NCBI GenBank assembly: GCA_018304465.1
Contig: JAGVWC010000008.1
Coordinates: 108,096-172,095, forward strand
DNA: 64,000 nucleotides
Source: Candidatus Iainarchaeum sp.
GTDB taxonomy: Archaea; Iainarchaeota; Iainarchaeia; Iainarchaeales; JAGVWC01
Direction of reading: 5' to 3'
Shown piece after piece: positions 12,283 to 56,331 of the stretch. Position 1 is the first letter of the stretch. Each line of letters opens with the position of its first letter. The position numbers and the translations under genes are program-made. The notes under the pieces were generated by a model, which saw only the letters and a program-made list of their open reading frames with translations, was not told the origin of the DNA and made no database searches.

Positions 12283-12346
12283 GCGACCGACCAAGACCCT
12301 TTTTTTAATGCCTTCGGAGGCCAAAATCAGTACAAAAAGGATCTTT

Positions 12347-15300
12347 ATGGGCTTAGGCGACCAATTACGCGACGCAATGGAAAAACTGCGAAAAAGCACG
12401 TTTTCCGACCGCGACGAAATCAAAAGCATCGTCAAATCCATGCAACGCGCACTGATTTCAGCCGACGTACCCGTCAAACTCGTGCTCGAAGTATCCAAAA
12501 AAATCGAAGACGCCGCGTTCTCCGAACTTGCACCCGGACTCAACCGCCGCGAACACGTATTGAAAAACGCGTACGACAACCTCGCCGAAATACTCGGAGG
12601 ACAAACCAAACCCCCCCAAAACCCCAAACGCATTCTCATGGTCGGATTGTTCGGCTCCGGAAAATGCGTTCATCCTTTGACGATTGTGCCGACTGCGAAC
12701 GGGTGCGTTGAAACAATCCAAAAAATATACGAGAAAAACCCGGAAACGGAATTGACGCTCGAAGACGGATTTGTGAAAGAGTTGTCGAATCCGATCGAAG
12801 TTTTCTCGCTTAATCCACTCAACTTGAAAATGACAAGGGGAACAGTTTCACACATCTGGAAATTAAAAAAAGACAAATCCCTATACAAAGTCGCACTAGA
12901 CAACGGAAACAATCACGCAGTAATTGTCACACCGGAGCACCCGTTTTTTGTACTTGAAAACGCCCATATTAAAAAAACCAAAGCCGAGGAACTCACCGCG
13001 GGCGCATTTGTTGCGACACCAAGACAACTTCCTCTGCCAGAAAAACAAATCCCAATTAAGTACCTAGAGCAAAATCTTCCGCAGTCCTTTCAAGTGGTCT
13101 GCCCGGAACTGATAAATGAAGCCAAACAGTTTATGATCGCAAAATTTCATTCACTCACGAACGCATTTAACATTCTCGGAGAAGACTATGCGTATTGTAC
13201 ATTCACTGCAAACCTGAAGCGCGGGATATTGCGATTCTCAACTTTAAAAAAACTGAGGAATCAAGGGTTTGAGCCAAATGGAACACAGGAGATAAAGTTG
13301 AAAGAATTTGGCACGGGAGCGCGAACAATCCAGGTACCTAACCAACTAACGACCGAAATGGCGGAATTCATGGGGTATTTTTTTGCAGACGGCCATATGA
13401 GAAAGGAATATGTTGAAATTACCAACGAATCGAATGAAATACTCGATCGGATAGAAAAAATTGGAATGCGACTATTCCAGAAAAAACCGTGTCGAAAACA
13501 AGACAAGAGAAACGCTAACGTAAAACAAATCCTGTTCTGCTCAGGAGTCTTGACCAAGGCGCTTAACACGGTTTTTGGATTTCCATATTTTAAAAAAAGT
13601 GACATCATTCGCATACCCCCCATGATTTTGCAGGCGACAAAGGAAAATAAGTATGCCTTTTTGCAGGCATACTTTGACTGCGACGGCTACGTGTCAAAAA
13701 ACACTCGTCAGATAGAATTTTGCACTGCGAGTCCCCTCTTTGCTGAAGACCTGCGAATACTGCTCACAAGCCTTGAGATGCAGCCAAATTATAGCAAAAA
13801 GAAAATCAAGGACAAATATTACTACCGCGTCTGTATCAAATGCAAGGACGTGGAAACCTTCTTTCAGCGAGTAGGATCCCGAATTCCTTTCAAGCAAAAA
13901 CGCCTTGCGGGAATGTCTGAAATCGGAGTCGGCCAAACACTTGGAAAAAATGAATTGCTCCATGTCGGCCAATCCATCCGAGACGTTCGAAACCAACAGG
14001 GTGCAACCATTGGAGACATACAGCACCATGTTGGTTCCTACGGAATATACGAACAAGAAGGATTGATATCCCGCAATTCTCTTAAAAAATTCATTGAAGC
14101 GATCACGACTAAAACAAAAAACAAGAACAATCAGATACTCCAAAACACAATTCAACCGAAAAAACTGAATGAGTTAAGCACTGCGTTTCAAGAACCGCTT
14201 GGCTGGGTCAACGCCAATGTTTTTCGCCTGAAAGAACTTGGATTTGTCACATATTCCAACGGGGAAGTACAAACAACCGAACTCGGAAAGCAACTGCTTG
14301 AAAAAAACCAAAAAGACGAAGGGCTAGAACTTAAAAAACTAGAGTTGCTTGCCCATTCAGACATCACATGGATGAAAGTCAAGAAGATCGAGCTCGTTGA
14401 CAACACGGAATACGTGTACGACCTCACAGTTGATGAATACCATAACTTTGTTGCTAACCAGTTTATTGTACACAATACCACCACTTCCGGAAAACTCTGT
14501 CACTATTACCAAAAACGCGGAAAAAAAGTCGGACTGATCGCCGCGGACACGTTTCGACCCGCGGCCATGGAACAACTTGAACAAATCGCCAAAAAAATCA
14601 ACGCCACCGTCATCCTTGACAAAAACGAAACCAAACCCGAAAAAATAATCCAACAAGGATTACAACGCGAAAAAGAATTCGATTTGCTTATCTGCGATTC
14701 CGCCGGACGCAACGCGCTTGATTCCGAATTAGAACAAGAAATCAAAACCATCAACCAAACCTTCAAGCCCGACCAAGCCTGGCTCGTGCTCGGCGCGGAC
14801 CTCGGACAAATCGCCGGAACCCAAGCCAAAGCGTTTCACGACGCGGTCGGCGTCAACGGCGTGATCGTCACGCGCATGGACGGAAGCGCCAAAGGCGGCG
14901 GAACACTCGCGGCCTGCCGCCAAACCAACAGCCCCGTGTACTTTATCGGAACCGGCGAAAAAACATCCGACCTCGAAGAATTCGACGCGGTGCGATTCCT
15001 GTCCCGCATCATGGGATACGGAGACCTCCAATCGCTTTTGGAAAAAGCCCAAGAAGCCGCACAAGACACCGACATGGGACTCGAAGAACTGCTCGAACAC
15101 GACTACACCCTGGAAACGTTTTACAAACAACTCGAAGCCACCAACAAAATCGGCACCATGGACAAAATCATGGAAATGGTCGGAATGAAACAACAACTCC
15201 CAAAAGAAGCGGCGGAACAAGGACAAAAAAAACTCGAACAATTCCGGTTCATGATGCAAAGCATGACCAAAAAAGAAAAACAAAACCCCGATCTGATCAA

Positions 15301-15505
15301 TTCCAGCCGAATTCGCCGCATCGCCCGCGGAAGCGGCAACACCCAGGAAAACGTGCGCGAATTGCTCAAACAATACAAGCGAATGAAAAACGCGTTCAAA
15401 CAACTCAAAGGACTCGACGAAAAAAAACTACAACAAGGAATGGACATGAAAAAACTGCAGGAAATGTTTTCCCCGAAAAAAAAGAAAAAACTCCGTTTCC
15501 GCTAA
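12347..15505 (+). CDS. srp54: Signal recognition particle protein SRP54 interrupted by an intein (start could also be 12308)
   Basis: N domain, then G-domain P-loop split as GLFGSGK|C...VHN|TTTSGKL; downstream AADTFRPAAMEQLE, DSAGR, TRMDGSAKGG, M domain rich in Met. Extein reading frame preserved. Confidence 0.9.
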   Translation: MGLGDQLRDAMEKLRKSTFSDRDEIKSIVKSMQRALISADVPVKLVLEVSKKIEDAAFSELAPGLNRREHVLKNAYDNLAEILGGQTKPPQNPKRILMVGLFGSGKCVHPLTIVPTANGCVETIQKIYEKNPETELTLEDGFVKELSNPIEVFSLNPLNLKMTRGTVSHIWKLKKDKSLYKVALDNGNNHAVIVTPEHPFFVLENAHIKKTKAEELTAGAFVATPRQLPLPEKQIPIKYLEQNLPQSFQVVCPELINEAKQFMIAKFHSLTNAFNILGEDYAYCTFTANLKRGILRFSTLKKLRNQGFEPNGTQEIKLKEFGTGARTIQVPNQLTTEMAEFMGYFFADGHMRKEYVEITNESNEILDRIEKIGMRLFQKKPCRKQDKRNANVKQILFCSGVLTKALNTVFGFPYFKKSDIIRIPPMILQATKENKYAFLQAYFDCDGYVSKNTRQIEFCTASPLFAEDLRILLTSLEMQPNYSKKKIKDKYYYRVCIKCKDVETFFQRVGSRIPFKQKRLAGMSEIGVGQTLGKNELLHVGQSIRDVRNQQGATIGDIQHHVGSYGIYEQEGLISRNSLKKFIEAITTKTKNKNNQILQNTIQPKKLNELSTAFQEPLGWVNANVFRLKELGFVTYSNGEVQTTELGKQLLEKNQKDEGLELKKLELLAHSDITWMKVKKIELVDNTEYVYDLTVDEYHNFVANQFIVHNTTTSGKLCHYYQKRGKKVGLIAADTFRPAAMEQLEQIAKKINATVILDKNETKPEKIIQQGLQREKEFDLLICDSAGRNALDSELEQEIKTINQTFKPDQAWLVLGADLGQIAGTQAKAFHDAVGVNGVIVTRMDGSAKGGGTLAACRQTNSPVYFIGTGEKTSDLEEFDAVRFLSRIMGYGDLQSLLEKAQEAAQDTDMGLEELLEHDYTLETFYKQLEATNKIGTMDKIMEMVGMKQQLPKEAAEQGQKKLEQFRFMMQSMTKKEKQNPDLINSSRIRRIARGSGNTQENVRELLKQYKRMKNAFKQLKGLDEKKLQQGMDMKKLQEMFSPKKKKKLRFR
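12665..14476 (+). mobile_element. Intein in SRP54 P-loop (604 aa) with LAGLIDADG homing endonuclease domain
   Basis: Starts with Cys after GSGK, ends VHN before Thr+1; internal dodecapeptide motifs MGYFFADGHM and LQAYFDCDGYV. Confidence 0.85.
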
Positions 15506-18243: not shown

Positions 18244-19161
18244 TTGAAAATACTCGTAACCGGAAGCAACGGACTCGTCGGAAGCGAAGTCGCCAAACTA
18301 TTACGACAAAAAAACATCGAAGTCATCGAATACGCAATTCAAAACAAAGACGACATTTCCGACGAAGAAAAACTCAAGAAAAAAACAAGCCGCTGCGACG
18401 CCGTGATTCACCTCGCCGCGATTCTGGACGAAAACGCATCGCACGAAACCCTTTGGAAAACCAACGTCGACGGAACCAAAAACGTTCTTGAAGCCTGCGC
18501 CGCCAACCGCGTGCCGCGATTACTGTTCGCAAGCACAGTGGGCGTCTACGGATCCCAAAGCGGATCCAAAACCGAAGAAACGCCCGTCCAACCCGAAACC
18601 GAATACGAAAAAAGCAAAACCGAAGCCGAAAAACTCGTGGTCTCCTACCAAGAACTGGTTCCGTACACGATTCTTCGCAGCGCCCTTGTGATCGGCCCCA
18701 ACACGTACTGGCAACAAATCGTTTCCATCGTGAAAAAAAACATTCCATTAATTGGGACCGGCGCCAACACCTGGCAAACGATTTACTACAAAGACCTTGC
18801 CAACGCGATTGTGTTCTTTTTATTTTTGGACACGGCCGAAAACGAAACCATTCTTGTTGCCAGCGAAGAAAAACCCCGCTTGATTGAAATCGTCGAAACC
18901 CTGCGAAGCCAACTCGGACTCCAAAACCCCGCCCCCACCGTCTCCGAATTCGTCGGAAAAATCATGGCCACGTTGCTTGGAATCTGGTTCGCGATTCAGG
19001 GCAAACCCAACATTCTATCCGAAAGCCACATCAAACGACTGCTGCGCGAACGAAATTACGATTTAACCAAAGCCCACGCATACGGATGGAAAGCCAAATA
19101 TACCTACCAAAAAGCCCTCAAAGAAAGCATTCAAGCCATACAAACCGATGCCAAAGAATAA
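18244..19161 (+). CDS. NAD-dependent epimerase/dehydratase family protein
   Basis: MKILVTGSNGLVGSEVAKLL Rossmann motif; YxxxK region present. Confidence 0.7.
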   Translation: MKILVTGSNGLVGSEVAKLLRQKNIEVIEYAIQNKDDISDEEKLKKKTSRCDAVIHLAAILDENASHETLWKTNVDGTKNVLEACAANRVPRLLFASTVGVYGSQSGSKTEETPVQPETEYEKSKTEAEKLVVSYQELVPYTILRSALVIGPNTYWQQIVSIVKKNIPLIGTGANTWQTIYYKDLANAIVFFLFLDTAENETILVASEEKPRLIEIVETLRSQLGLQNPAPTVSEFVGKIMATLLGIWFAIQGKPNILSESHIKRLLRERNYDLTKAHAYGWKAKYTYQKALKESIQAIQTDAKE

Positions 19162-19202: not shown

Positions 19203-20240
19203 ATGCCCGCACGCAAAATCCCCCAGCAAAAAGCCAATGCCCGGCTACGCAAAAAAATCCCAAAAAACTGGGACAGCCTGGATCCAAAGCATATTCCGGA
19301 CAAACGGCAAAGAGACAAACTCAAACGAATACTGCCCATTCCCGGCAAACTAAAGAAATTTCTGGCCAAGCGAAAAATACGGCCCTTTGCCCCCAAAGAA
19401 CGCGGATTCCGCTTACCCAACCAGGAAATCGGCCCCATCAAACGCGCGACCAACCGAATGCGTTTCATTTACGACCACTACTGGTCCACTTCAGCCGCCG
19501 AAATCGCACAACGCCAACGACTTCAAAAACAGATCCACCAAGGACACAGCCAATTCACGAACCTGACACGATGGGAAAAAAGACGCTTGAACGAATTACT
19601 CCAACAACAAATCGCGGCAATCGGAAGAGAACGCGGACGCTTTCAAAACAAATACAAAGTCGTTGACGATCGGATCGATGACGAAGCCCTGCGACGACTG
19701 GACATCCACCCGGATTATCCCGCGGTTCACTCCCGACGCGCGTACATGGAAAACCTTCGAGACGCGCTTCGAAAACCAGGACAACACGCCGTCGGACTCG
19801 TGGACGTCGACAACTTGTCCCGTGTAAGCACTGAAATCGATCACGCCAAAGCCGGAAAAATCGTCGATATTTTGGCCGAAAGCCTCTCCGAAGTCCTAAA
19901 ACCGCGCCGCGGATTTGCATGCGTGTACGGCGGGGACGAACTCTATATTTATCTTCCGCGAAACCTCCGAGAATCCGAACTGATCATGGACGTACGGTTT
20001 CGCGAAGCATTTGAGCGGAGAATAGAAAAATTCCCCGAACTAAAACGACTCGTCAAAAGAAACAACATTGATTTCACCGGCGTCGTCCAAGACTTTTCAT
20101 CGGACACACCGCGCATCGGATTCCAACCGGACAGCGTTGTGGAAGGACTCAGCCGGCAAGTCAATCGCATCAAGAAAAAGAAAAAACGCAAAGGAATCGT
20201 CGTAAGCCTCAGCAGAAGCGGCCGCGAAGTCAATGTTTAA
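19203..20240 (+). CDS. GGDEF-like nucleotide cyclase palm-domain protein with basic coiled-coil N-terminal region
   Basis: C-terminal half reads RRAYMENLRDAL...HAVGLVDVDNLSRVSTEIDHAKAGKIVDILAESL...RRGFACVYGGDELYIYLP, collinear with the GGDEF fold (NRRxF - LxMxDxDxFKxxND - GHxxGDxVL - RYGGEEF). Confidence 0.55.
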   Translation: MPARKIPQQKANARLRKKIPKNWDSLDPKHIPDKRQRDKLKRILPIPGKLKKFLAKRKIRPFAPKERGFRLPNQEIGPIKRATNRMRFIYDHYWSTSAAEIAQRQRLQKQIHQGHSQFTNLTRWEKRRLNELLQQQIAAIGRERGRFQNKYKVVDDRIDDEALRRLDIHPDYPAVHSRRAYMENLRDALRKPGQHAVGLVDVDNLSRVSTEIDHAKAGKIVDILAESLSEVLKPRRGFACVYGGDELYIYLPRNLRESELIMDVRFREAFERRIEKFPELKRLVKRNNIDFTGVVQDFSSDTPRIGFQPDSVVEGLSRQVNRIKKKKKRKGIVVSLSRSGREVNV

Positions 20241-21028
20241 GACCGGCTTTTTTCTTTTGCACCTTGCTTCACGCCGCGCATGATCGATTGCATCATTTCT
20301 TTGGCTTTTGCCAAATCCCCATTCGCTTTTTCGACCATCGAACCGACATGCACGATATCCGCACCCGCTGTGATGGTTTCAAACGCGAATTGCTCCGAGC
20401 GAACGCCGCCCGCAACCAACAGCGGAATGTCGATCATTTTTTTCACGTACGAAATCATTTCAGGCGGAGCCGGACTCGGTGCGCCGCCGCCAGATTCCAA
20501 AATCACGAGTTGACTTCCCATCATCTGGCCCGCTAACGCCGTTGCCGCCGCCAAATAAGGCAATTCCCGCGGAATCAAACGCGCTCTTCCGACCCAACCC
20601 ACCGCGCGACCGGGTTCGACGATCACGTAACTCGTCGGAATCGTTTCAAGCCCCATGCGCTTGATCGGCATGGACGCCACGGTCTGGGCGCCGGACAAAT
20701 AATACGGATCATCCGAATTCAACAAGCTCATAAAATACATCGCGTCGGCTTTCGGAGACAACGAAGCGATGTTACCCGGAAACAGCACGACTGGCAACGA
20801 AGAAACCTCTTTGATCGACGAAATCGTCTGATCCAAAATCTCGCCTTGCGCGCCAACGCTTCCGCCAACCGCGATCGCCGAAAAACCGGTTTCTTCCGCA
20901 AGACGCGCGATTTTTCCCGCTTTTTCCGGAGACTGGTTCGGCGGATCGATCACCAAAAACGCCAAGCCGCGCTTTGAATCAAGCTCGGACAAAATCTTGG
21001 ACCAGGTTTTTTTTGAAACAGGTTTCAA
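20237..21028 (-). CDS. Geranylgeranylglyceryl phosphate synthase (PcrB/GGGPS family)
   Basis: TIM-barrel motifs AIAVGGS, LVILESGGGAPSP, PLLVAGGVRS; 263 aa. Confidence 0.8.
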   Translation of the reverse strand: MKPVSKKTWSKILSELDSKRGLAFLVIDPPNQSPEKAGKIARLAEETGFSAIAVGGSVGAQGEILDQTISSIKEVSSLPVVLFPGNIASLSPKADAMYFMSLLNSDDPYYLSGAQTVASMPIKRMGLETIPTSYVIVEPGRAVGWVGRARLIPRELPYLAAATALAGQMMGSQLVILESGGGAPSPAPPEMISYVKKMIDIPLLVAGGVRSEQFAFETITAGADIVHVGSMVEKANGDLAKAKEMMQSIMRGVKQGAKEKSRS

Positions 21029-21560: not shown

Positions 21561-22421
21561 ATGAACCCGATTCCGTCCGGATTACTGAACCAATACCTGG
21601 AAAAAACAGGCAAATCTCCCGAAGAAGCCGAAAAATTAATCAGGGAAAAAACCGCCAAATTCGCGGGACTATTAACGGAAGAAGCCGCGTTGTTTTTACT
21701 TGCCAAAGAAGCGGGAATCAATCCGGACCTTGCCACCAAAACCATCCAACCCGTTCCGATCCAGCAACTCGAACCCGGACAAACCAACATCGACGTTTTG
21801 TGCGTGGCCAAACACGTGTATCCCATCAAGGAATTTCCCAACAAAAACAAACCCGGCACGGGAAAACGCGGGTCTTTGCTGGTATGCGACGAAACCGGCG
21901 AAATTTATCTCACCTTATGGCACCAGCACACGGATTTGATCAAAACCGTTTCCATCGGAACGCCGATTCTTCTTTCGAACGTATCCGTTACCGAATACAA
22001 CGGACAAAAACAACTCAACTTCGGATTCAAAAGCGGATTCGACGCCAATCCCACCGCGGTTTCCACCCACACCTTGCCGAATTTTAAAACCGAAACCATG
22101 GCCATCGAAAAAATCGAAGGCGGACAATACAACCTCAACGTATCCGGAACCATCACCAAATTGTTTCCCGTCAAAAGCTTTGAAAACGACCGCGACAGCG
22201 GCGAGTACCGCGCGTTTGAAATCAAAGACGATTCCGCGATCATCCGATGCGTCGCCTGGAACGACGCCGCAACCCAAACCGAAAAGCTAAAAGAAGGCGA
22301 CGCCGTACTTATTGAAAACGCGTACTCGAAAACCAACCGAAACGACGAAACCGAACTGCACTTAGGAGACAAAAGCCGCGTCGTCAGTCAATCCCAAACC
22401 AGAGGAGAGTCCACGTCGTGA
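21561..22421 (+). CDS. ssb: Replication protein A / single-stranded DNA-binding protein with two OB folds
   Basis: Two OB-fold units (NIDVLCVAKHVYPIKEF...TGEIYLTLW and LNVSGTITKLFPVKSF...DDSAIIRCVAWN). Confidence 0.7.
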   Translation: MNPIPSGLLNQYLEKTGKSPEEAEKLIREKTAKFAGLLTEEAALFLLAKEAGINPDLATKTIQPVPIQQLEPGQTNIDVLCVAKHVYPIKEFPNKNKPGTGKRGSLLVCDETGEIYLTLWHQHTDLIKTVSIGTPILLSNVSVTEYNGQKQLNFGFKSGFDANPTAVSTHTLPNFKTETMAIEKIEGGQYNLNVSGTITKLFPVKSFENDRDSGEYRAFEIKDDSAIIRCVAWNDAATQTEKLKEGDAVLIENAYSKTNRNDETELHLGDKSRVVSQSQTRGESTS

Positions 22422-23137
22422 AACCCGCCCGAATCCCAAAATCGCGTCCCAAAGGATTTCAAACGCGATGGGAAAAAAAACGAATTTTGCGAGACAAAAA
22501 ACGAATCAATCAAGGAAAAAAAACGCTTGCCGAACCATTGGTACTGGCAAGCCCGAGCGAAAGACGCGCGGCACTTGCGAAAGGACAAATGCTTTCTTAC
22601 AACGGTCCGCAAAAAATCGAACTTCCTCTTGTCATCACTTTGAACCACGAAAGCCTAGTTCTCCAAGGTGCCTACCGAACCCCCGACAGTCGAATACTCA
22701 CCCTGCGCTTTTCGCCCAGCCATGACCTGCTGTCCTTATACGAATTCGAAATGGGACCGGAACCAACGGAACGCGCAATACAACCCGCATGGATCACCGC
22801 CGAACCTAGTTTGGGACACATGGAAATTTCGCGAAATCTGCGGGGCCGGGGCATCGGATTAAAAGCCGCTTCAAAAGCCGAACGCACCAACCGAGCCATT
22901 CAACAAGGCCACCATCAATTCCGAGCATTGAACCGGTTTACGCCTGTTTTTTCAAAGTTACACTATGCTTTGATTGAAGAAGGCGAATTTGCGTCTGTTT
23001 TTTTTTTTAAAAAAGGAAAACATCAGCCCCGTGATAACCTATCGGCTTTCCATCGAATCGAAGCTATTGATCCAAAAACAGGCAAAGCCAGAATTTTTAC
23101 TTTTCCAATTTCAATAAAAGAGGAATCAAAAGTATGA
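22418..23137 (+). CDS. GNAT-like acetyltransferase-fold protein with basic N-terminal tail (paralog 1)
   Basis: LRGRGIGLKAASKAER...KLHYALIEEGEF resembles GNAT motif A/B; K/R-rich first 40 aa; start overlaps ssb stop. Confidence 0.4.
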   Translation: MKPARIPKSRPKGFQTRWEKKRILRDKKRINQGKKTLAEPLVLASPSERRAALAKGQMLSYNGPQKIELPLVITLNHESLVLQGAYRTPDSRILTLRFSPSHDLLSLYEFEMGPEPTERAIQPAWITAEPSLGHMEISRNLRGRGIGLKAASKAERTNRAIQQGHHQFRALNRFTPVFSKLHYALIEEGEFASVFFFKKGKHQPRDNLSAFHRIEAIDPKTGKARIFTFPISIKEESKV

Positions 23138-23916
23138 AACCGCGCCACAGCGTCCGAACCCGTACTCTCGGACAAAAAACAAAATGGGAACGCAAACGCG
23201 AAAGACGAACCGAAAAACGGATAACCGCCAAAAAAAAACCATTCGTCCAACCGCTCGCGCTGGCATCCACCAAAGAATTTCAAGAAGGACTTCAACACGG
23301 GCAACTCGTCGTCTACGACGGTGCGGAAAGAATTCCGTTGGATCTCGTGGGTTCCCCGGTTCATCTGCAGGGAGGCGTTTTAAAGGAATACCTGCAAGGC
23401 GTCTACAAATTATTCGACGGCACGCGCATCACGGTCCGATTTGCCCCCATGCACCAACGAGGCCAGGGAATGCTGGTGGTGCGCCAGTTAAAAAAAATCC
23501 GAAACGAGTACGTGGAAATACCCGTTCGAAACGCGTTTTATGAAAGCGCGTTCGCATTCGCTTTCGACGACCTGAGCCACATGTATCTTCCGCCCCAGTG
23601 GCGAGGCGAAAAACTCGGAACAAAACTCGCGTCAAAAGCCGAACGACACATGCGAAGCATCGGAAACGGAACCCATTCGTTTATTCCTAGCCCCGGATTT
23701 CGAAGACTCTTCCTGCAGGAAAGACCAGTTCCCGGACAAAAAAAACCCAAAAAAATTCTCGGATACACGACCAGCCCCAACGGAGGCGCGGACATCACAA
23801 AAACCGGAAAATCGTATCCAAGCGAAAATCTTGGGCAATATCACAACATCGAAGTGATCGATCCTGGCACCGGCCGAAAAGTCAACCTCGTGATTCCGGT
23901 TCAAAACAATCCCTGA
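23134..23916 (+). CDS. GNAT-like acetyltransferase-fold protein with basic N-terminal tail (paralog 2)
   Basis: Paralogous to the upstream ORF (KPxxxxRxRxxGQKTxWExKRxxRxxKRI; LASKAER box); start overlaps upstream stop. Confidence 0.4.
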   Translation: MKPRHSVRTRTLGQKTKWERKRERRTEKRITAKKKPFVQPLALASTKEFQEGLQHGQLVVYDGAERIPLDLVGSPVHLQGGVLKEYLQGVYKLFDGTRITVRFAPMHQRGQGMLVVRQLKKIRNEYVEIPVRNAFYESAFAFAFDDLSHMYLPPQWRGEKLGTKLASKAERHMRSIGNGTHSFIPSPGFRRLFLQERPVPGQKKPKKILGYTTSPNGGADITKTGKSYPSENLGQYHNIEVIDPGTGRKVNLVIPVQNNP

Positions 23917-29546: not shown

Positions 29547-32500
29547 ATGACAATTAAGTTCGTGAAAAAGCGAGACGGCCGCGTAGTCGCCTTTAATCAA
29601 GACACCATTACCAACGCGGTCTGGAAAGCCGCCAAAGCGGTTGGCGGAAAAGACAAATCACTGGCGGTCGAATTATCCAGAAAAGTCGTTCACGAACTCG
29701 AAAAAAAATTCCCCGAAAAACACGTTCCCACCGTGGAAGAAGTCCAGGACGCCGTTGAAAAAGTACTGATTGAACAAGGCCACGCGCGAACCGCGAAAGC
29801 CTACATCATTTACCGCCAGCAACACGCCGAAATCCGGCGCGAAAAAGCCCTGGTGCTTGACAAACAAGAAACCGACGAAGTCGACAAACGATTCGACTTA
29901 AACGCGTTACGCGTCTTAAAAGCGCGTTACCTGCGCAAAGACGCCGCGGGAAAAACCATCGAAACCCCAAAAGAACTCTTCACCCGCGTCGCGGTACACG
30001 TACTGATCCCCGAATTGCTCTACGATCCCCGCGTCTTTGACAAAGAAGCGACCCAAAAAACCCACCCCGTGGAGCCGTTTGACAACGTCGAAAACGAATA
30101 CAAATTATCCATTGGAAAATACCAACTCAACCAATACCATCTTGAAGCCCTAAAACGCGTGTACGATAAGTTTTCCCGCCAAGGCAAAATGAAAATGCCG
30201 TGGGGACGATTCTTAGAAATGCTCAAAAACGGAGAATTCGACCAACACGAAACCAGCGGAGACGAATTCTACAGCCTCATGGTGTACAAAAAATTCATGC
30301 CCAATACCCCTGCGATCGCCAATTTCGGAGCGGTCCTTGGAATGGGCAGCGCCTGTTTTGTTATGGATGTCCGCGACAATATCGAAGGCATCATGGACAC
30401 CCTCAAAAACGCCACCATCGTATTCAAATCCGGCGGCGGCGTCGGATACAATTTCTCGAAACTCCGACCCGAAGGCGATTTCGTTTCCACCACCACCGGC
30501 GCGGCCAGCGGCCCCATCTCGTTTATGGGACTGTTCGACAAAATGACCGAAGTCATCAAACAAGGCGGAATCCGCCGCGGCGCCAACATGGGAATTCTCA
30601 ACTGCCTTGCAGGAGATACCGAGATTTCAACCATTGAAGGACGCAAAAAAATCAAAGAACTGGTTGGAACACAACCCCACCTGTACTGCCTAAATGATAC
30701 CAATGAAGTGCGGATCCGGCAAGCGAACCGTGTCATCCACTCCGGCCAAAAAAAACTGGTTCGAATCACCTTCGACGACGATACCCGCATTGATTGCACG
30801 CCCGATCATCGCATCATGCGCTCGAACGGCCAGTATACACACGCCCAAGACCTCCAGCCCCTTGACAGCGTCATGGCGTTCCATAAGAAAATACTCAACG
30901 ACCGCTACTTTATCGGTTCCACTATGAGCCCACTTTCCCCCGAGCACGTCATCGCCACCGAAACCAACAGCAAAGTACTGATCGAGCAGACCGGCCAAAC
31001 ACGATTGTCCAACGACCTGTGCGTCCACCACAAGGACAACAACCCCCTCAATAACCACCCGAATAACCTGCAAGTGCTTACCATTTCAGAACATGCCAAA
31101 ATACACTCCGATGTCCTGATCGAAAACCAAAAAAGAATCGCGATTTCACGGAAAGGAAAAACGATCGAACAGGTTTATGGCAGCGAAAAAGCGGATGCAT
31201 GGAAACAAAAAATGAGCCAAGCACGACGAAACAAAAAACCTTGGAACGCCGGCTCCGACACAGAAGTCTACAAAGCCCATTACAAAAACGGATTCAAGAA
31301 CCAATACGAATACGCCAACGCCAACCACAAAGTGGTCAAAGTCGAACCACTGGAGGGCATTCACGACATCTACGACATTATCATGGACGATTACCACAAC
31401 TTCGTCGCGAACGGCGTCTTTGTCCACAACTCAAACCACCCGGACATCGAAAAATTCATCACCGCCAAAGAAGGCAACAAACAACTCACCAACTTCAATA
31501 TCTCCGTGCTCATGATGCCGGACTTCTGGGAATACTACAACAAAAACGAACCCTACCCCCTGATCAATCCCCGCGACGGAGAAGTCGTCCGAACCGTGAA
31601 CCCCCGCATGCTCTTTGACATGATTGTCTACCAAGCATGGGAAAGCGCGGAACCCGGCGTGATCTTCTACGACAAAGTCAACGAATACAACCCGTTCTAC
31701 GAACACCTCGGACCCATTGTGACCACGAATCCCTGCGTGACTGGAGACACGCGCGTATCCACCGCAAAAGGATTGGAACGCATCGACCAACTTGCACCCG
31801 GCCTAATTACTGTGGATTCGCGTGTAAACGCGCTTTCAAACAAAAGCGGCTCGAAATCGCTCCAACTTGGAACCCAGCAAGGAACCGCAATTCAGGTCAT
31901 TAAAACTGGAACCAAACCCGTGTTCCGAGTGGAAACCACCAGTGGATTTGAAATCAAAGCAACAGCAGATCACAAGATACTGACCCCCCACGGATGGAAA
32001 GCAGTTGAGCAACTGACCGCTGGAAACGAAATACTGATCCAAAGCGGGGCAGGAAAATTCAATTCAGATTCCGCATTACCTTTTATTGTGGAAAATACCC
32101 CCGTCGGAAAAAACGGAAAAAAGTACCGGAATAACCTTCCCGCAAAATGGAGCTACGATCTCGGCCTCGTTATGGGCTGGATGCTCGGCGACGGATGGCT
32201 CAATGATCAAGCGAACCAAGTGGGGCTCGTATTTTCAAAACCGGACTATGAAGCAAAAGAACAGCTCAAACCTATTTTTGAGCATTATTGTAACCGATCC
32301 ATAAAGCTCACCAACAGAGATCAAAGTGCAGTTCAGATCCGAAGCAACAGCAAGTATGTTACAGAGTACTTCTTCAAACTCGGACTCACTTCCGTCGATA
32401 AGGAAAAAGAAGTTCCAAGCACGATTTACACCGCAACCGAAGAGGCAGTCAGAGGATTCCTCAAAGGATTATTTTCTTCGGATGGAACTATTGCGCACCA

Positions 32501-34148
32501 AAAAGAGAGCAGAAACTATGTACGACTAAATTCCAGTTCACTTACATTACTCAAAGGAGCGCAACGATTGCTTCTCAATCTTGGAATCAAAAGTACGATT
32601 TATGATCGCTCAACCGAACCAAAAACATTCAAATACATCACGGCAAAAAACCAAACTAAGCAATATCAAACCAGTGGCGAAAATTATGAGCTAAATATCA
32701 GCAAAGAAAATTTGCCACGCTTTTTAGACAAAATCGGTTTCATTCAAAGCCGACACACCCAGACGGCAGCAAAAATACAACAACACGAATTTTACACTGA
32801 ATATTTTGTTGAAAAAATAAAAACCATCGAGGCTGCCGGCATCGAAGATGTCTACGATCTTACGGAACCGACCACCCATTCATTTATCGGAAACGGAATA
32901 CTGCTACATAATTGCGGCGAAGTATTGTTGTATCCGAACGAAAGCTGTAACCTTGGAAGCGTCAATGTCTGGACGTTTTTCAAAGAAGACGAAGACGGAA
33001 CCCAATACTTTGACTGGGATGACCTCAAAAAAACCGTGCAAACCGCAAGCAAGTTTCTCGACAACGTCATTGACGTGAACAAGTTTCCATTAAAAGCCAT
33101 CGAAGACATGACCGACGCCACGCGCAAAATCGGACTCGGAGTCATGGGCGTCGCCGACTTGTTTTACGAACTCAAACTCCCCTACAATTCCCCCGAAGCG
33201 CGCGATGCCGCCGAAAAACTCATGGAATTCATCAACTACCACAGCAAAGCCGTTTCCATTGACCTGGCCAAAACCCGCGGACCCATGCCCTACAACGACA
33301 AAAGCTTTTACCTCGAAGGCCGGCTCGCGATTTCAGGACCCGAAACCAAAGAAAAACTCCACTTCAACTGGGACGACATCCGCGAAGGATACAAAAAATT
33401 CGGTTCCCGCAACGGCTACAACACCGTCATCGCGCCCACCGGAAGCATCTCCATGATCGCGGGCTGCAGCTCCGGAATCGAACCCGTGTACTCACTCGTA
33501 TTCGAAAAAAACGTCAAAGTCGGAAGCTTCTACTACGTCGACCCCGTCTTTGAACGCATCATGAAACAAGAAGGACTCCACGACAGCAAACTCATGGAAG
33601 ACGTATCCGAAAACGGCGGAAGCATCCAACACATCCCGTATTTGACCAACGAACAAAAACACGTTTTCGTCACTGCCATGGACATCACCCCTGAAGACCA
33701 CATCCGAATGCTCGCCGCGTTCCAACGCTGGTGCGACTCCAGCATTTCGAAAACCAACAACTTTCCGGCCGACGCGACCGTCGAAGACATGCGCGCCAGT
33801 TACCTGCTCGCATACCAATTGGGATGCAAAGACGTTACGGTTTTCCGCGACAGCTCCATCAAAGCCCAAGTGCTGAACGCACCCAAGAAAAAAACCGTGG
33901 ACACGAGCTCGCTCAAACTCGAGGCCAGCAAAGCCCAAACCATGCAAGCGATTTCGCCTTCACCTGCCCCCATAACCCAAACCGCCAAACCCGCGGAAAC
34001 AAAACAAGTCACGGGCCGAAGCACTTCGACAGTCCAGCAACCCAAAAGCAAATACGAAATCACGAACTGCCCCAACTGCAACTCCGTGACCCAAATCAAA
34101 GAAGGCTGCGTCAACTGCCCCGAATGCGGCTGGGGAATGTGCAACTAA
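29547..34148 (+). CDS. nrdJ: Ribonucleoside-diphosphate/triphosphate reductase, class II (adenosylcobalamin-dependent), with ATP cone, two inteins and C-terminal zinc ribbon
   Basis: ATP cone KFVKKRDGRVVAFNQDTI; catalytic exteins ...GANMGILN|SNHPDIEKF... and ...TTNP|CGEVLLYPNESCNLGS; C-terminal CPNCNS...CVNCPECG. Confidence 0.85.
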   Translation: MTIKFVKKRDGRVVAFNQDTITNAVWKAAKAVGGKDKSLAVELSRKVVHELEKKFPEKHVPTVEEVQDAVEKVLIEQGHARTAKAYIIYRQQHAEIRREKALVLDKQETDEVDKRFDLNALRVLKARYLRKDAAGKTIETPKELFTRVAVHVLIPELLYDPRVFDKEATQKTHPVEPFDNVENEYKLSIGKYQLNQYHLEALKRVYDKFSRQGKMKMPWGRFLEMLKNGEFDQHETSGDEFYSLMVYKKFMPNTPAIANFGAVLGMGSACFVMDVRDNIEGIMDTLKNATIVFKSGGGVGYNFSKLRPEGDFVSTTTGAASGPISFMGLFDKMTEVIKQGGIRRGANMGILNCLAGDTEISTIEGRKKIKELVGTQPHLYCLNDTNEVRIRQANRVIHSGQKKLVRITFDDDTRIDCTPDHRIMRSNGQYTHAQDLQPLDSVMAFHKKILNDRYFIGSTMSPLSPEHVIATETNSKVLIEQTGQTRLSNDLCVHHKDNNPLNNHPNNLQVLTISEHAKIHSDVLIENQKRIAISRKGKTIEQVYGSEKADAWKQKMSQARRNKKPWNAGSDTEVYKAHYKNGFKNQYEYANANHKVVKVEPLEGIHDIYDIIMDDYHNFVANGVFVHNSNHPDIEKFITAKEGNKQLTNFNISVLMMPDFWEYYNKNEPYPLINPRDGEVVRTVNPRMLFDMIVYQAWESAEPGVIFYDKVNEYNPFYEHLGPIVTTNPCVTGDTRVSTAKGLERIDQLAPGLITVDSRVNALSNKSGSKSLQLGTQQGTAIQVIKTGTKPVFRVETTSGFEIKATADHKILTPHGWKAVEQLTAGNEILIQSGAGKFNSDSALPFIVENTPVGKNGKKYRNNLPAKWSYDLGLVMGWMLGDGWLNDQANQVGLVFSKPDYEAKEQLKPIFEHYCNRSIKLTNRDQSAVQIRSNSKYVTEYFFKLGLTSVDKEKEVPSTIYTATEEAVRGFLKGLFSSDGTIAHQKESRNYVRLNSSSLTLLKGAQRLLLNLGIKSTIYDRSTEPKTFKYITAKNQTKQYQTSGENYELNISKENLPRFLDKIGFIQSRHTQTAAKIQQHEFYTEYFVEKIKTIEAAGIEDVYDLTEPTTHSFIGNGILLHNCGEVLLYPNESCNLGSVNVWTFFKEDEDGTQYFDWDDLKKTVQTASKFLDNVIDVNKFPLKAIEDMTDATRKIGLGVMGVADLFYELKLPYNSPEARDAAEKLMEFINYHSKAVSIDLAKTRGPMPYNDKSFYLEGRLAISGPETKEKLHFNWDDIREGYKKFGSRNGYNTVIAPTGSISMIAGCSSGIEPVYSLVFEKNVKVGSFYYVDPVFERIMKQEGLHDSKLMEDVSENGGSIQHIPYLTNEQKHVFVTAMDITPEDHIRMLAAFQRWCDSSISKTNNFPADATVEDMRASYLLAYQLGCKDVTVFRDSSIKAQVLNAPKKKTVDTSSLKLEASKAQTMQAISPSPAPITQTAKPAETKQVTGRSTSTVQQPKSKYEITNCPNCNSVTQIKEGCVNCPECGWGMCN
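30603..31430 (+). mobile_element. Intein 1 in RNR (276 aa) carrying HNH endonuclease motif
   Basis: Begins CLAGDTEI, ends VFVHN before Ser+1; internal HHKDNNPLNNHPNNLQVLTISEHAKIH HNH box. Confidence 0.8.
31734..32912 (+). mobile_element. Intein 2 in RNR (393 aa) with LAGLIDADG homing endonuclease domain
   Basis: Begins CVTGDTRV, ends ILLHN before Cys+1 (CGEV); motifs MGWMLGDGWL and LKGLFSSDGTI. Confidence 0.85.
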
Positions 34149-34792: not shown

Positions 34793-34842
34793 GAAGAAAT
34801 CTGAATCCCATTCTTTTTAAGAATTCCCCCGCAAAATTATTT

Positions 34843-35112
34843 GGGCCAGGTGAGGGGGCTAGCGGTCCCCTGTACCCGAAATCCGCTTCATGCGGGAACC
34901 CACGCTGTCAAAACGTGAATTGGGCTTGTACCAAAGCCATTGTTTGGACGACGACCCTTTGTCCTAAAAGGTCGATGGCAATTGCCAACCCGCCAGGTTC
35001 GGAAGAAAGCAACGGTACCAATCGTCTTCGATGCTTTTAGACCGCAGAGGCGAGGAAAAACAATGGACTAAACTTTGGGACAAAACCAGTGCGCTATTTG
35101 GCAGCGGCCCAC
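34843..35112 (+). ncRNA. ffs: Signal recognition particle RNA (7S/SRP RNA)
   Basis: Helix 8 signature GCCAGGUUCGGAAGAAAGCAACGGUACC at 34990-35018; 5' GGGCC and 3' GGCCC ends can pair; GC-rich, ORF-free; located between two protein genes. Confidence 0.7.
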
Positions 35113-35119
35113 TTGAAAA

Positions 35120-37096: not shown

Positions 37097-38944
37097 ATGC
37101 AATACGCCCACCAAACCGGGGAAGACCTCTTAGAAAAAGTCCGCAACAGCCATTTTTCGTCGGAAATACCGCTGATTCGAAAAGCGCTTGAAAAAAACAA
37201 ACCTCTTCCCGAACACACCCGAACGCTTGCCATCGACACGGCAAGCACGTTGACCCAATTTGGATTCGGAAAAACGGCCGTCTGCGCGGCACTGCTTCAA
37301 TTCCACGATCTTGAAACCCTCAAAGGCGAATTCGAATCCGAAATACTGGAACTGGCCCACGGACTGCAAAAAATCGAGCGCGTGAAAGCCAAGAACCGGG
37401 GAAAACTATCCCCGGAATCACTGCAAAAAATCATTCTGGCCTTGTCACCGGATCCCCAAATCATCATCATCTGGATCTGCAAAAAACTCGTGGAACTGAG
37501 GTTTTTGTCCGAACAACCCAAAGACGAACAACTTCCGCTGGCCGAAGACGTGCTCAATCAATGGGTCCCCGTTATTCACAAACTCGGGCTGCACAAAATC
37601 CGGTGGGAAATCGAAGATCTGGCCATGAAAAAAATCCTGCCCAAAGAATACAAAGCCATCAAAGAATACCTCAACGACAAGCGAAACACGCGACAAGAAA
37701 AAATGCGCGAACTCGTCGAAAAACTCCGATCCGCGCTACAAAAAGCCCAACTTGAAGCTGTGGTATTCGGACGCGTCAAAAACTTTTACCGCATTTACAA
37801 AAAAATGAACGAACAAAAACGAAACCTGAAAGACATCCACGATTTGATCGGCGCGCGCGTCATCTGCAACAGCGTAAACGAGTGCTACGAAACACTTGCC
37901 GTGATCCAGAACTCCTTCAAACTCGAAACCCAAGGATTCGATGATTACATCCAAAAACCCAAAAAAACAAAGTACCAATCCATTCACGTCGACCTGGACT
38001 GGAAAGGAATACCATCCGAAATACAGATTCGAACCTGGGAGATGCACAAAGAAGCCGAAGAAGGCGTCGCCGCGCACTGGGAATACAAACAATACAAAAA
38101 AGACCCGACGTTTGACCGGCACTTAACGATTGCCAAACAACTGGCGGAATGGTTCGACCAAGTACACCACAAAAGCATCATGGACTCGCTGAACCTAAAA
38201 TTCGAAAAAAACAAAATCTTCGTTTTAACCCCAAAAAGCGAACTCGTGGAGCTGCCCGAAAAAGCCACCCCCGTCGATTTTGCGTTTGCCGTGCACACAG
38301 AACTCGGATACAAATGCGAAAAAGCCCGCGTGAACGGAAAAATCGTCCCGCTCGATTACCAACTCCAAAACGCGGACAGCGTCGAAATCATCACCAGCGA
38401 AAAGCAAATTCCAAAACAACACTGGTTAACGTTTGTTCAAACCGAAAAAGCGAAACAAAAAATCCGAACCAAACTGAACATCGTTCCGACAAAACCCGAA
38501 AAAGAAAAAAAAACCGGAATCGTAAAAGCGACGTTCCGGAAAAACGCGCAGTTCCTTCCCGCCAAATGCTGCTCGCCGATTCCGGGCGATGAAATCGTCG
38601 GGCACAAAACCACGAAACGAAAAATAAAAATCCACCGGATCGACTGCCCCAATGCCCAGCGGATACCCGAAGACGAGCGACTGACACTATCCAACGCATC
38701 GTTCACTCAAAAAGAATTCGAAACCACGCTGCGAATCAACGTGCACAACCAGCCGGGAGTACTCTCCGAAATACTGGACGCCATCGGCAAACACGATACC
38801 AAAATCATTTCCACCGAAGCCGTTACGCACGCGCACTCAATCACATGCCGATTCCGCATCAAAACAAAAAACAGGAAAACCTTCGAGCAAACCGCCGAAC
38901 GCGTACAGAAAATCAAAGGGATTATCGACGTACAACGCGGATGA
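37097..38944 (+). CDS. Long RelA/SpoT homolog (partly degenerate HD, synthetase, TGS, ACT)
   Basis: AALLQFHDLE HD remnant; synthetase DLIGARVICNS...YQSIHVDL...EIQIRTWEMHKEAEEGVAAHWEYK; TGS IFVLTPKSELVELPEKATPVDFAFAVHTELG; C-terminal ACT-like. Confidence 0.75.
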   Translation: MQYAHQTGEDLLEKVRNSHFSSEIPLIRKALEKNKPLPEHTRTLAIDTASTLTQFGFGKTAVCAALLQFHDLETLKGEFESEILELAHGLQKIERVKAKNRGKLSPESLQKIILALSPDPQIIIIWICKKLVELRFLSEQPKDEQLPLAEDVLNQWVPVIHKLGLHKIRWEIEDLAMKKILPKEYKAIKEYLNDKRNTRQEKMRELVEKLRSALQKAQLEAVVFGRVKNFYRIYKKMNEQKRNLKDIHDLIGARVICNSVNECYETLAVIQNSFKLETQGFDDYIQKPKKTKYQSIHVDLDWKGIPSEIQIRTWEMHKEAEEGVAAHWEYKQYKKDPTFDRHLTIAKQLAEWFDQVHHKSIMDSLNLKFEKNKIFVLTPKSELVELPEKATPVDFAFAVHTELGYKCEKARVNGKIVPLDYQLQNADSVEIITSEKQIPKQHWLTFVQTEKAKQKIRTKLNIVPTKPEKEKKTGIVKATFRKNAQFLPAKCCSPIPGDEIVGHKTTKRKIKIHRIDCPNAQRIPEDERLTLSNASFTQKEFETTLRINVHNQPGVLSEILDAIGKHDTKIISTEAVTHAHSITCRFRIKTKNRKTFEQTAERVQKIKGIIDVQRG

Positions 38945-47082: not shown

Positions 47083-47168
47083 CGGGCTCAGTGGGGATCG
47101 AACCCACGATCACTCGGTTGCTCCAAGAACCTAAGAGCCGAGTGCTTTACCGGCTAAGCTATGAGCCC
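47083..47168 (-). tRNA. tRNA-Lys (CTT) with 13-nt anticodon-loop intron
   Basis: GGGCTCA TA GCTT AGCCGGTA AAGC A CTCGG CTCTTA[GGTTCTTGGAGCA]A CCGAG TGATC GTGGG TTCGATC CCCAC TGAGCCC G; anticodon assignment depends on exact intron boundaries. Confidence 0.55.
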
Positions 47169-54222: not shown

Positions 54223-56331
54223 TCATAGGCTATCAAAAGGACTCTTCACTTTTTTCAGTTCTTCCGTTCGCACCGTGGTGTAAATCTGGGTGGTGTTCAG
54301 ATTTGCATGACCCAACAATTCTTGGATCTTTCGAATACTTTCTCCCGCTTCCAGCAAATGCGTGGCGTATGAATTGTGTACTACAAAACCATCCGCAAAC
54401 AGATTTTCTGTTCCAGCCACGGTAAAATCATACACTGGGACGGTATCCCGCACTGGCAGGATCTTGGTTACTTCCATCCATTTGTAGTTCTCTCCCAATA
54501 ATGAACGAATCGCATTGCGTTCTTCCAAAAAATCCGGTTCTTTTTCGATTTCGTGCAAAATTTTCGCGACCGTCTCTCGGACCGGAATGATTTTTCCCGT
54601 GTAGCGCTTCAAATGCTTAATTCCTTGCCGGGTTTGCAAACGATAAATAAATCCCCGCTGTTGCAGCAGTTTTGGGTACATCTTTTTCAAAATCAAATGT
54701 GCCGGGATCCACTCTCCCACGGAATCGTTTTCAATTCGAAGTTTTTTTTGGGTTGGGATCAGCAACTCAAACAACACTTGGTCCGGACGGCGAAGAATGA
54801 ATAATTCAAAAATTGTGTGCGAAATAATTCGGCCTTGAGGCAACTTCACTTTTCGATCTCGCTGATGAAAATACGAATTGATTCCAAGTCGCAGCAAAAG
54901 AACCTGCACATCCTTTAGCAATTCTTTACTAGTAGAAAAAAAGCGCGGAACCCCCTCGTTCCCGTCTGCGTCATACAAACCTGCCAGAAATTCGCATACT
55001 TCTTCAGTGCTTGCCGAGAATAACTCCATTGGTATCCGCTTCGTAGGCGCCCGCCTGTCCATATCCAGTAACTGACAGGTGTGCACCAAATCAACAGAAT
55101 AATACGCCAACTCAAACGAGTTTCTTCCATGCGTCGGGTGAATAAACGGTCGCTTTCCAAACTGTTGCTCCAAAAGCGATTGGTAAAACTGCAAAAACGA
55201 AAGGTTCTTATCACAAATCACAACCCCACGCCGACTATCGCTTATGGTTCCGTCTCCTAACGCATATCCCACAAAACGCCACCAGGCCGGAGATGCACGC
55301 CGGGTTTCCGCAATCGTAACTTTTTTGGGGCCCAGCACAAAATCGCCGGGCTTTAAATCTTTGGCACATGCTTCCCCAAGGCCATACACAGTCGCTACAA
55401 AAAAACGATGCTCTGGCGTGCATGTTAACAAATAACCACCCGCATTGACTTCGAGAAGCCCTTCTGCATACTGCATGAACGCACCCACCAACGGGGCATT
55501 GATCACGTGTTGTGTGTTCCATTCAAAGCTTCGAACCAAGGTGCCTTTTCCGGAAAACAAAGCCTGCGCGGAAACAATTCCATTCGAAGTAAAAATCCGA
55601 GTATTCGCTTCTACACAGTGACGCATGCTGTGCGGCGTCACTTCTTTTTGAATTCCCGCCTTGGCCGCCGCTTTGCGAATAATACGCTGAATGGTATCCA
55701 CCGAAATGGATGTCCCGGTAGTTTTTTTGGAGAACACAAACTCGCTTGAAACTTTTTTTCGCTTCAAATAGCGCTTCAGATCCGACACCCAATTCTTGGA
55801 CAAGATAATGATACGGTCCTTGTTTCCTTTGCCGCCTTTCACTCGGCCGATAAACTCGCTTAACTCGAGGTCCGCGACCTTGAGTTTGACGGCTTCGCTT
55901 ACGCGCACGCCGGACGAATACAAAAATTCGACAATCAAACGATTACGCCCCTTCTTGGTCGCTTTGATCAACGCTTTTACTTCGGCCTTGGTGAGAACGG
56001 TCGGGAGCTTTTTGGCTTTTTTCATGGCGCGCACGTCTTCCATGATTTTTAATTTTAAAAAATTTCCAAAAAAGAATTTGAGCGCCGAGTGCGCCAATGC
56101 CAAACTCGAATTCGAAATATTTTCTTTCTCCTTGCGGTTCGCGATGTATCCCACGATATCCGCTTTTTCGGTTTCTTCCACGGGCTTTTGGAGCGACTTC
56201 AAAAAATCCGAAACCAAAAACAGATATGTTTTGATCGTCTGCTTCGAGTACCCCGTGACGACCAGTTCCTGGCGAAAACGCGTCAGCATTTCCTGGTTAT
56301 GCGGCAAAATTTCCGAATCCGTTTCGCTCAT
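54223..56331 (-). CDS. xerA: XerA/XerC-like tyrosine recombinase interrupted by an intein
   Basis: N-terminal core-binding domain; catalytic exteins ...TPHSMRH|SYATHLLEAGESIRKIQELLGHANLNTTQIYT (R-H-R-H-Y boxes) flank a 415-aa insertion. Confidence 0.8.
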   Translation of the reverse strand: MSETDSEILPHNQEMLTRFRQELVVTGYSKQTIKTYLFLVSDFLKSLQKPVEETEKADIVGYIANRKEKENISNSSLALAHSALKFFFGNFLKLKIMEDVRAMKKAKKLPTVLTKAEVKALIKATKKGRNRLIVEFLYSSGVRVSEAVKLKVADLELSEFIGRVKGGKGNKDRIIILSKNWVSDLKRYLKRKKVSSEFVFSKKTTGTSISVDTIQRIIRKAAAKAGIQKEVTPHSMRHCVEANTRIFTSNGIVSAQALFSGKGTLVRSFEWNTQHVINAPLVGAFMQYAEGLLEVNAGGYLLTCTPEHRFFVATVYGLGEACAKDLKPGDFVLGPKKVTIAETRRASPAWWRFVGYALGDGTISDSRRGVVICDKNLSFLQFYQSLLEQQFGKRPFIHPTHGRNSFELAYYSVDLVHTCQLLDMDRRAPTKRIPMELFSASTEEVCEFLAGLYDADGNEGVPRFFSTSKELLKDVQVLLLRLGINSYFHQRDRKVKLPQGRIISHTIFELFILRRPDQVLFELLIPTQKKLRIENDSVGEWIPAHLILKKMYPKLLQQRGFIYRLQTRQGIKHLKRYTGKIIPVRETVAKILHEIEKEPDFLEERNAIRSLLGENYKWMEVTKILPVRDTVPVYDFTVAGTENLFADGFVVHNSYATHLLEAGESIRKIQELLGHANLNTTQIYTTVRTEELKKVKSPFDSL
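54373..55617 (-). mobile_element. Intein in tyrosine recombinase (415 aa) with LAGLIDADG domain
   Basis: Starts CVEANTRI after MRH, ends VVHN before Ser+1; motifs FVGYALGDGTIS and LAGLYDADGNEG. Confidence 0.8.

Follow-up and report, generated by a model that had tools for sequence, protein, structure and literature searches.

A divergent stalk-GGDEF protein native to Iainarchaeota, with an apparently rebuilt substrate pocket

Can a GGDEF domain found in an archaeal genome be real, and does its signature motif suffice to call a synthase of cyclic di-guanosine monophosphate (c-di-GMP)? According to reviews, archaea essentially lack c-di-GMP signalling (PMC5847659, PMC10086821), and the genuineness of GGDEF hits in archaeal metagenome-assembled genomes (MAGs) has been questioned (Galperin et al., PMC5847659; Romling, PMC10086821). 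More than 300 archaeal GGDEF BLAST hits have been reported, many of them from DPANN and Asgard archaea (Braun et al., PMC8646023). Both questions are raised by a gene in 64,000 nucleotides of Candidatus Iainarchaeum sp. (contig JAGVWC010000008.1), the whole of which is called the window here. The gene (19203..20240, + strand, stop codon included) encodes a 345-aa stalk-GGDEF protein, P0001. A first-pass annotation had described a GGDEF-like palm domain in an archaeal genome and proposed either an unrecognised second-messenger enzyme or a horizontal acquisition. P0001 is a bona fide, strongly derived member of the GGDEF (diguanylate-cyclase-fold) family, and its gene is native to Iainarchaeota.

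The palm domain was assigned to aa 168-335 (19704..20207, +). P0001 aa 177-273 matched Pfam GGDEF (PF00990) with E = 3.2e-6 and 27.4 bits (gathering score 23.8), over profile positions 11-110 of 161 only. Scores of the other clade members were 27.8 (P0002), 26.8 (P0003) and 23.0 bits (P0005, just under threshold). NCBIfam TIGR00254 gave 25.3 bits on P0001, under its cutoff of 37.4. All significant matches in a PDB sequence search were GGDEF domains (best SadC 4wxo, E = 0.0018). No match of P0001 to Cas10, mCpol or class III cyclase (PF00211) was found in Pfam or PADLOC, and its best structural match was not a class III adenylyl/guanylyl cyclase. With the predicted palm fold described below, these results bear out the proposed domain. 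The four strings quoted in the first-pass annotation (RRAYMENLRDAL, GLVDVDNLSRV, DHAKAGKIVDIL and VYGGDELYIYLP) were all present in the P0001 translation. The word ‘unrecognised’ had to be dropped. The identical protein is held at NCBI as ‘GGDEF domain-containing protein [Candidatus Diapherotrites archaeon]’ (phylum Iainarchaeota, kingdom Nanobdellati, or DPANN), UniRef uses the same domain name, and that a DPANN MAG can encode a GGDEF domain is thus already known (databases; PMC8646023).

Active-site residues were compared within the clade (P0001, P0002, P0003 and P0005, given below in that order) and with the 67 nearest other GGDEF domains. In the motif register DxDxFKxxNDxxGHxxGD, P0001 aligned free of gaps with SadC and with the consensus of the 67. 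PleD numbers were put on this register from the PleD sequence, and the result agrees with the published checklist. In PleD numbering, the checklist of a functional cyclase comprises Asp327, Lys332, Asn335, Asp344, Glu370, Lys442 and Arg446 (PMC6629876).

The metal-binding and catalytic acids were kept. Metal ligand Asp327 is D201 (Asp in all four clade members and in 67/67 others), Asp329 is D203 (Asp in all four and in 65/67), and Gly368 and Gly369 are G243 and G244 (kept throughout the clade and in 67/67). Glu370, a Mg2+ ligand, is D245 (Asp in all four; 35 Asp and 32 Glu among the others), and the general base Glu371 is E246 (Glu in all four and in 67/67). These roles follow the description of the third motif residue as holding Mg2+ and of the fourth as a general base acting across the dimer (PMC6456294). 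The signature itself reads GGDEL (aa 243-247; 19929..19943, +), and its Phe-to-Leu change was also seen in 7 of the 67. D201, D245 and E246 were invariant in 13/13 members of the archaeal family described below. Retention of GG(D/E)E and of the metal-binding Asp, as claimed in the first-pass annotation, is confirmed: they are GGDE (aa 243-246) and D201, both invariant in all relatives. The phosphate-binding pair was also present, as K324 for Lys442 (Lys in all four and in 64/67) and a conservative K328 for Arg446 (K/K/E/K; 49 Arg and 14 Lys among the 67), in a C-terminal helix where the alignment is less certain than in the N-terminal half.

What had been missed is that the guanine-recognition and transition-state residues are all replaced. 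The metal-binding Asp region DVDNLSRVSTEIDHAKAG (aa 201-218; 19803..19856, +) keeps D201 and carries S206 at Lys332 (clade S/N/N/A; Lys in 63/67 others), S209 at the guanine-reading Asn335 (S/S/L/V; Asn in 67/67) and G218 at the guanine-reading Asp344 (G/A/G/G; Asp in 59/67). Arg366 is V241 (V/V/L/V; Arg in 63/67). Asn and Asp/Ser make the only two base-specific hydrogen bonds of the GGDEF site (PMC6456294), and no domain in the set of 67 has lost both Asn335 and Asp344. Judged from these alignments, the four-member clade appears to have a substrate pocket rebuilt in a way absent from its 67 nearest GGDEF relatives, which is a new finding. The product-binding RxxD I-site was also not found in P0001. 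Its position, five residues upstream of the GGDEF motif, reads KPRRG (aa 233-237), and all members of the archaeal family have Gly at its Asp position. P0001 does not have the makings of an I-site-type c-di-GMP receptor.

Comparison with known enzymes sets these changes in relief. PleD, WspR and SadC share with P0001 the fold, the metal-binding Asp, the GG(D/E)E motif and the phosphate-binding Lys. P0001 is only 12-18% identical to cyclases of this type, and their guanine-reading Asn and Asp, near-invariant Lys and Arg, and I-site are replaced in it. SiaD of P. aeruginosa (7e6g) and DgcB of C. crescentus (6ttr) are minimal diguanylate cyclases made of a coiled-coil stalk and a GGDEF domain. 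P0001 differs from both in lacking Lys332, Asn335, Asp344, Arg366 and the RxxD I-site, and goes beyond them in its 75-aa basic tail, second helix and archaeal host. No SiaC-like partner of P0001 was identified. Hypr GGDEF enzymes (GacA, Bd0367; 6d9m) make 3',3'-cyclic GMP-AMP and have Ser at the Asp344 position with the Asn (Asn339) kept; in the P0001 clade this position is Gly or Ala and the Asn too is missing, so that the published Hypr definition (PMC6456294) does not apply.

The rest of the protein is a tail and a stalk. The first-pass annotation had described a 150-aa basic coiled-coil N-terminus. In the prediction this region consists of a basic, Pro-rich, probably disordered tail (aa 1-75; 19203..19427, +) of low confidence (predicted local distance difference test, pLDDT, 45-74), after which two long helices (aa 76-112 and 123-167) form a predicted stalk or dimerisation element (aa 76-167; 19428..19703, +; pLDDT 83-97). 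Across the clade the tail varies in length and is weakly conserved, with a few invariant Pro, Arg and Gly positions. The calculated isoelectric point (pI) of P0001 is 10.6, and about two thirds of the longest non-overlapping open reading frames (ORFs) of the window also have a calculated pI of at least 9. The stalk ends in a conserved RRLxxHPDYP linker, and the motifs G(R/Q)E(R/K)GR and PDYP are conserved in the clade. No recognised sensory domain was found in addition to the helical stalk, as had been noted before. The NCBIfam SiaD model aligned P0001 aa 102-270 to SiaD positions 32-200, across stalk and domain (23 bits against a cutoff of 290), and the A4 profile matched SiaD (7e6g) over the stalk plus the GGDEF domain. 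Homodimerisation is suggested by the long predicted stalk helices that align with the SiaD stalk.

The P0001 structure was predicted with AlphaFold2 from an 80-sequence alignment; a model from a two-sequence alignment had reached a pLDDT of 51 and was discarded. Superposition on SadC (4wxw) gave a root-mean-square deviation of 2.3 Å and a template-modelling score of 0.77, as expected of a GGDEF palm fold. Degenerate GGDEF domains (FimX, LapD) scored as high against the model as active ones, and the fold is therefore uninformative on the activity of P0001.

Relatives were sought with HMMER in 1.84 billion cluster representatives, which yielded 88 proteins at E <= 1e-3. Three were close: P0003 (Candidatus Ainarchaeum), P0004 (a fragment, Diapherotrites archaeon) and P0005 (assembly GCA_053536055.1, L017 5494-6522). 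When a 4-sequence alignment was searched against 185,579 species-representative genomes, one locus was recovered, in Ainarchaeum, and the same search of JGI metagenome contigs gave no related locus. A next tier (P0006, P0007, P0009-P0013, P0090 and P0091; E 1e-10 to 1e-7) consists of small proteins laid out like P0001, which start with a short basic MPxPxP stretch and continue through a long helix and a DP(D/E)(F/Y)P linker into a GGDEF domain. Wherever it was readable, their gene context was archaeal: P0009 (L019 8001-8918) lies among GatE, ATP-dependent DNA ligase, diphthamide synthase and archaeal-type ProRS, and P0006 (L020 4839-5636) among NMD3, FtsZ and a beta-CASP nuclease. P0012 (MDO8538500.1) is named ‘diguanylate cyclase [archaeon]’. 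P0006, P0009, P0012 and P0013 are the nearest relatives outside the clade (17-24% identical to P0001) and resemble it in their short basic N-terminus, helix and DPxFP linker into the GGDEF domain, as well as in their archaeal contexts. The distant archaeal relatives all keep Lys332 and Asn335, and in P0006, P0009 and P0013 Asp344 and Arg366 are present too, which gives these three the full seven-residue checklist (Arg446 being Lys in two, including P0009). A family of sensor-less archaeal stalk-GGDEF proteins is recognised here for the first time, with the P0001 clade as a derived branch; an ancient bacterial origin of the family is possible. As a separate observation, P0006 and P0009, which are DPANN-like, appear to be better candidates than P0001 for genuine archaeal c-di-GMP synthesis.

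That the gene belongs to its genome was established from its surroundings. Archaeal genes in the window include S19e, L39e, L31e, eIF-6, prefoldin, Rpr2, TFIIE-alpha, Trm56, RadA, an RPA-like OB protein and GGGPS/PcrB, and an Rfam scan placed an archaeal signal recognition particle (SRP) RNA at 34839-35114. GC content was even throughout. The gene lies inside a 164-198 kb contig of archaeal housekeeping genes, and the identical protein was found on 11 contigs, up to 198 kb in length, from several independent assemblies and samples. The genome is therefore genuinely archaeal, as had been assumed, and the neighbours are the housekeeping genes then named. A co-directional NAD-dependent epimerase/dehydratase (18244..19161, +; Pfam Epimerase E = 1.7e-35) ends 41 nt before the GGDEF start and is a possible operon partner. 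Downstream, the convergent PcrB/GGGPS gene of archaeal lipid synthesis (20237..20992, -; Pfam PcrB), which shows 80-81% identity to its counterparts in the syntenic genomes, shares 4 nt with the 3' end of the GGDEF gene. The locus of P0002, a 62% identical orthologue, has the order RTC, epimerase, GGDEF, PcrB, hypothetical gene and RPA. That of P0005, a 30% identical homologue, reads SRP54, peptidase A24, RTC, epimerase, GGDEF-like gene, PcrB, RPA, EamA, RadA, Sua5 and NAD kinase.

Gene order conserved in two related genomes excludes both contamination and a recent transfer of the GGDEF gene, so the horizontal acquisition suggested by the first-pass annotation is contradicted as a recent event, by the shared block RTC-epimerase-GGDEF-PcrB-RPA and by the wider archaeal family. 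That the MAG contains bacterial contamination, or that the gene arrived very recently and has no settled function, had to be considered since GGDEF domains are overwhelmingly bacterial, and Galperin et al. named contamination as a possible source of the bacterial-type response regulators seen in archaeal MAGs, a REC-GGDEF fusion among them (PMC5847659). Against it stand the archaeal housekeeping contig, the recovery of the identical protein on 11 contigs, the uniform GC content, the archaeal contexts of the nearest relatives and, decisively, the synteny, and we regard it as extremely improbable. The locus thereby answers whether GGDEF hits in archaeal MAGs can be real, with a conserved archaeal synteny and a small archaeal family.

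Functional coupling of the epimerase and GGDEF genes, as in the glycan control of bacterial c-di-GMP systems, was considered and rejected. The two genes are also neighbours in the genomes of P0002 and P0005 (3 nt apart in L017) and not in the Ainarchaeum locus (L016). Their adjacency is confined to the three genomes that share the whole block, and is therefore not independent evidence of coupling.

Purifying selection acts on P0001, most strongly on the metal and general-base core. The ratio of nonsynonymous to synonymous substitution rates (dN/dS) between P0001 and P0002 was about 0.13, a rough guide only because dS is near saturation. The catalytic N-terminal half of the GGDEF domain was the most conserved region in 3/3 comparisons (71%, 52% and 39% identity). 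Rates were uneven between lineages. The P0005 genome (L017) is closer to the window than the P0002 genome (L007) for three of four shared neighbours (RTC 67% vs 54%, epimerase 70% vs 62%, RPA 68% vs 54% identity), with PcrB level at 80% vs 81%. Despite neighbours 62-80% identical to those of the window, the GGDEF-like protein of L017 shares only 30% identity with P0001, against 62% for P0002. Either evolution was much faster in one lineage or the gene was replaced in situ.

The reading that we tentatively prefer, at somewhat less than even odds, is that P0001 is a stalk-dimerised nucleotide-condensing enzyme of non-guanine or relaxed specificity. In this view P0001 is a small cytoplasmic protein in which a true GGDEF domain follows a basic, probably disordered tail and a helical stalk. 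Dimerisation through the stalk helices, on the pattern of SiaD, DgcB and WspR, would bring the two GGDEF half-sites opposite one another. One Mg2+-nucleoside triphosphate (NTP) would be held per half-site through D201, D245 and K324/K328, and E246 of one subunit would deprotonate the 3'-OH of the nucleotide bound by the other, giving a (cyclic) dinucleotide. Lacking an I-site, the enzyme would be free of product feedback and might be regulated by a partner that binds the stalk or tail. A broader proposal, which we consider rather doubtful, is that an archaea-specific clade with a rebuilt pocket and an intact Mg2+/general-base core makes a signal other than c-di-GMP; taken with the full-length RelA/SpoT homologue of the same genome (described below) and the canonical-looking sibling proteins of related DPANN genomes, this would imply that some DPANN archaea run a re-tooled bacterial-style network of nucleotide second messengers.

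Several points weigh against catalysis of this kind. Four residues usually needed for catalysis or substrate binding are replaced in P0001; Lys332, Asn335 and Asp344 serve as criteria of a functional cyclase (PMC6629876), and the single change of Asp344 to Ser abolishes activity in 4/5 canonical cyclases (PMC6456294). The replacement residues are unconserved in the clade, and therefore no new solution to base recognition is visible. The predicted structure is not independent of sequence homology because its input alignment consisted of GGDEF proteins. The uneven rate of the GGDEF gene could reflect relaxed constraint. No EAL, HD-GYP or PilZ family is on record in Pfam for any called gene of the window, as the first-pass annotation had noted, and Rfam gave no c-di-GMP riboswitch there; a phosphodiesterase and an effector, as in a complete c-di-GMP system, thus do not lie alongside the gene within these 64 kb.

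Degenerate GGDEF domains such as FimX, LapD and YybT/GdpP usually lose the GGDEF motif itself, and several bind c-di-GMP through an RxxD I-site. The main rival to the preferred reading, possible and rated only somewhat lower, is that P0001 is such a degenerate domain without cyclase activity. It would then serve regulation or scaffolding, or turn over NTPs slowly as the GGDEF domain of YybT/GdpP does, by way of protein contacts of its stalk and tail. The replaced pocket residues suit this rival. It is opposed by the retained GGDE, by the invariance of D201, D203, G243, G244, D245, E246 and K324 even at 30% identity, and by the catalytic half being the most constrained region. As there is no RxxD I-site in P0001, the usual c-di-GMP-binding receptor mode is unavailable to it, which also counts against a degenerate role. 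At the other extreme, P0001 might be an ordinary diguanylate cyclase that turns two GTP into c-di-GMP for bacterial-type signalling in an archaeon. Diguanylate cyclases came out on top in each library searched, P0001 retains GGDE and its metal Asp, and P0006, P0009 and P0013 carry the full checklist. Nevertheless, the replacement of base-reading Asn335 and Asp344, of the transition-state residue Lys332 and of Arg366 makes a GTP-specific substrate and a canonical c-di-GMP product unlikely. The window holds none of the c-di-GMP partners named above, and c-di-GMP was undetected in the two archaea assayed, neither of them DPANN (PMC8646023). On its residues P0001 is probably not an ordinary c-di-GMP synthase, and we give that role a low probability. 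Of the second-messenger cyclase first proposed, the GGDEF fold and metal site therefore stand, and c-di-GMP activity is doubtful (S/S/G/V at Lys332/Asn335/Asp344/Arg366, unconserved).

Lower still we place a nucleic-acid-directed nucleotidyltransferase or oligoadenylate-type synthase resembling Cas10 or mCpol, with the basic tail binding RNA or DNA and the palm domain adding nucleotides or joining them. Its highly basic N-terminus and the loss of base-specific residues in P0001 would agree with this, as would weak, sub-threshold Cas10 palm matches of P0003 and P0005 (Pfam PF22335 E = 0.008-0.02; PADLOC Cas10 E = 0.0027). The frequency of basic proteins in the window, counted on a list that includes some spurious ORFs, weakens the case for the tail as a nucleic-acid binder.

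No study of what an archaeal GGDEF protein does turned up in a literature search. Added here are the native archaeal context from conserved synteny, the archaeal stalk-GGDEF family and the apparently rebuilt pocket. Since a clade exists without any guanine-specific contact, the GGDEF motif alone is insufficient to call an archaeal c-di-GMP synthase. If P0001 is active, it would be a natural case, in addition to the Hypr enzymes, of a GGDEF domain with a changed specificity, and would offer biochemists a simple target that has no sensor; if inactive, it would be a rare degenerate GGDEF domain that has retained its signature motif.

Other features of the window were recorded. A second bacterial-type nucleotide-messenger gene lies about 17 kb downstream of the GGDEF gene, encoding a full-length, 615-aa RelA/SpoT homologue (RSH; 37097-38944, +) with HD_4, RelA_SpoT (E = 3.2e-36), TGS and ACT_4 domains and a sub-threshold RelA_AH_RIS match. 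It appears from its domains to be of the long RSH (p)ppGpp synthetase/hydrolase type and stands between TIM and thymidylate-kinase-like genes. A 2011 census recorded archaea as without long RSHs (PMC3153485).

Two tandem overlapping paralogues at 22418-23137 and 23134-23916 (+; 239 and 260 aa; 34% identity, E = 2e-28) gave no significant Pfam or PADLOC match. Both start with a basic MKP...(T/K)(R/K)WE(K/R)KR N-terminus, and on contigs L001 and L005 the first gene occurs as a 232-aa variant. Over 23 aa, the first paralogue marginally resembles the stalk loop of the GGDEF protein (E = 0.006; IQQGHHQFRALNRF against IHQGHSQFTNLTRW). An N-terminal module common to the GGDEF protein and the paralogues was rejected, as the match is marginal in the first and missing in the second, and the genes are absent from the P0002 syntenic contig.

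Inteins were found in the genes at 12308-15505 (SRP54, one intein with LAGLIDADG), 29547-34148 (ribonucleotide reductase, two inteins) and 54223-56331 (a tyrosine recombinase/integrase split by one intein). In the related genome L017 the SRP54 orthologue (448 aa) is intein-free. Many proteins of the window open with a short, basic N-terminal stretch of MP(K/R) type, and along the whole + strand the AT skew is strongly positive and the GC skew negative. A fourth tRNA was called by Rfam at 47083-47168 (-; 86 nt, 61.6 bits), adjoining tRNA-Lys and not reported by ARAGORN; it may be an intron-containing archaeal tRNA.
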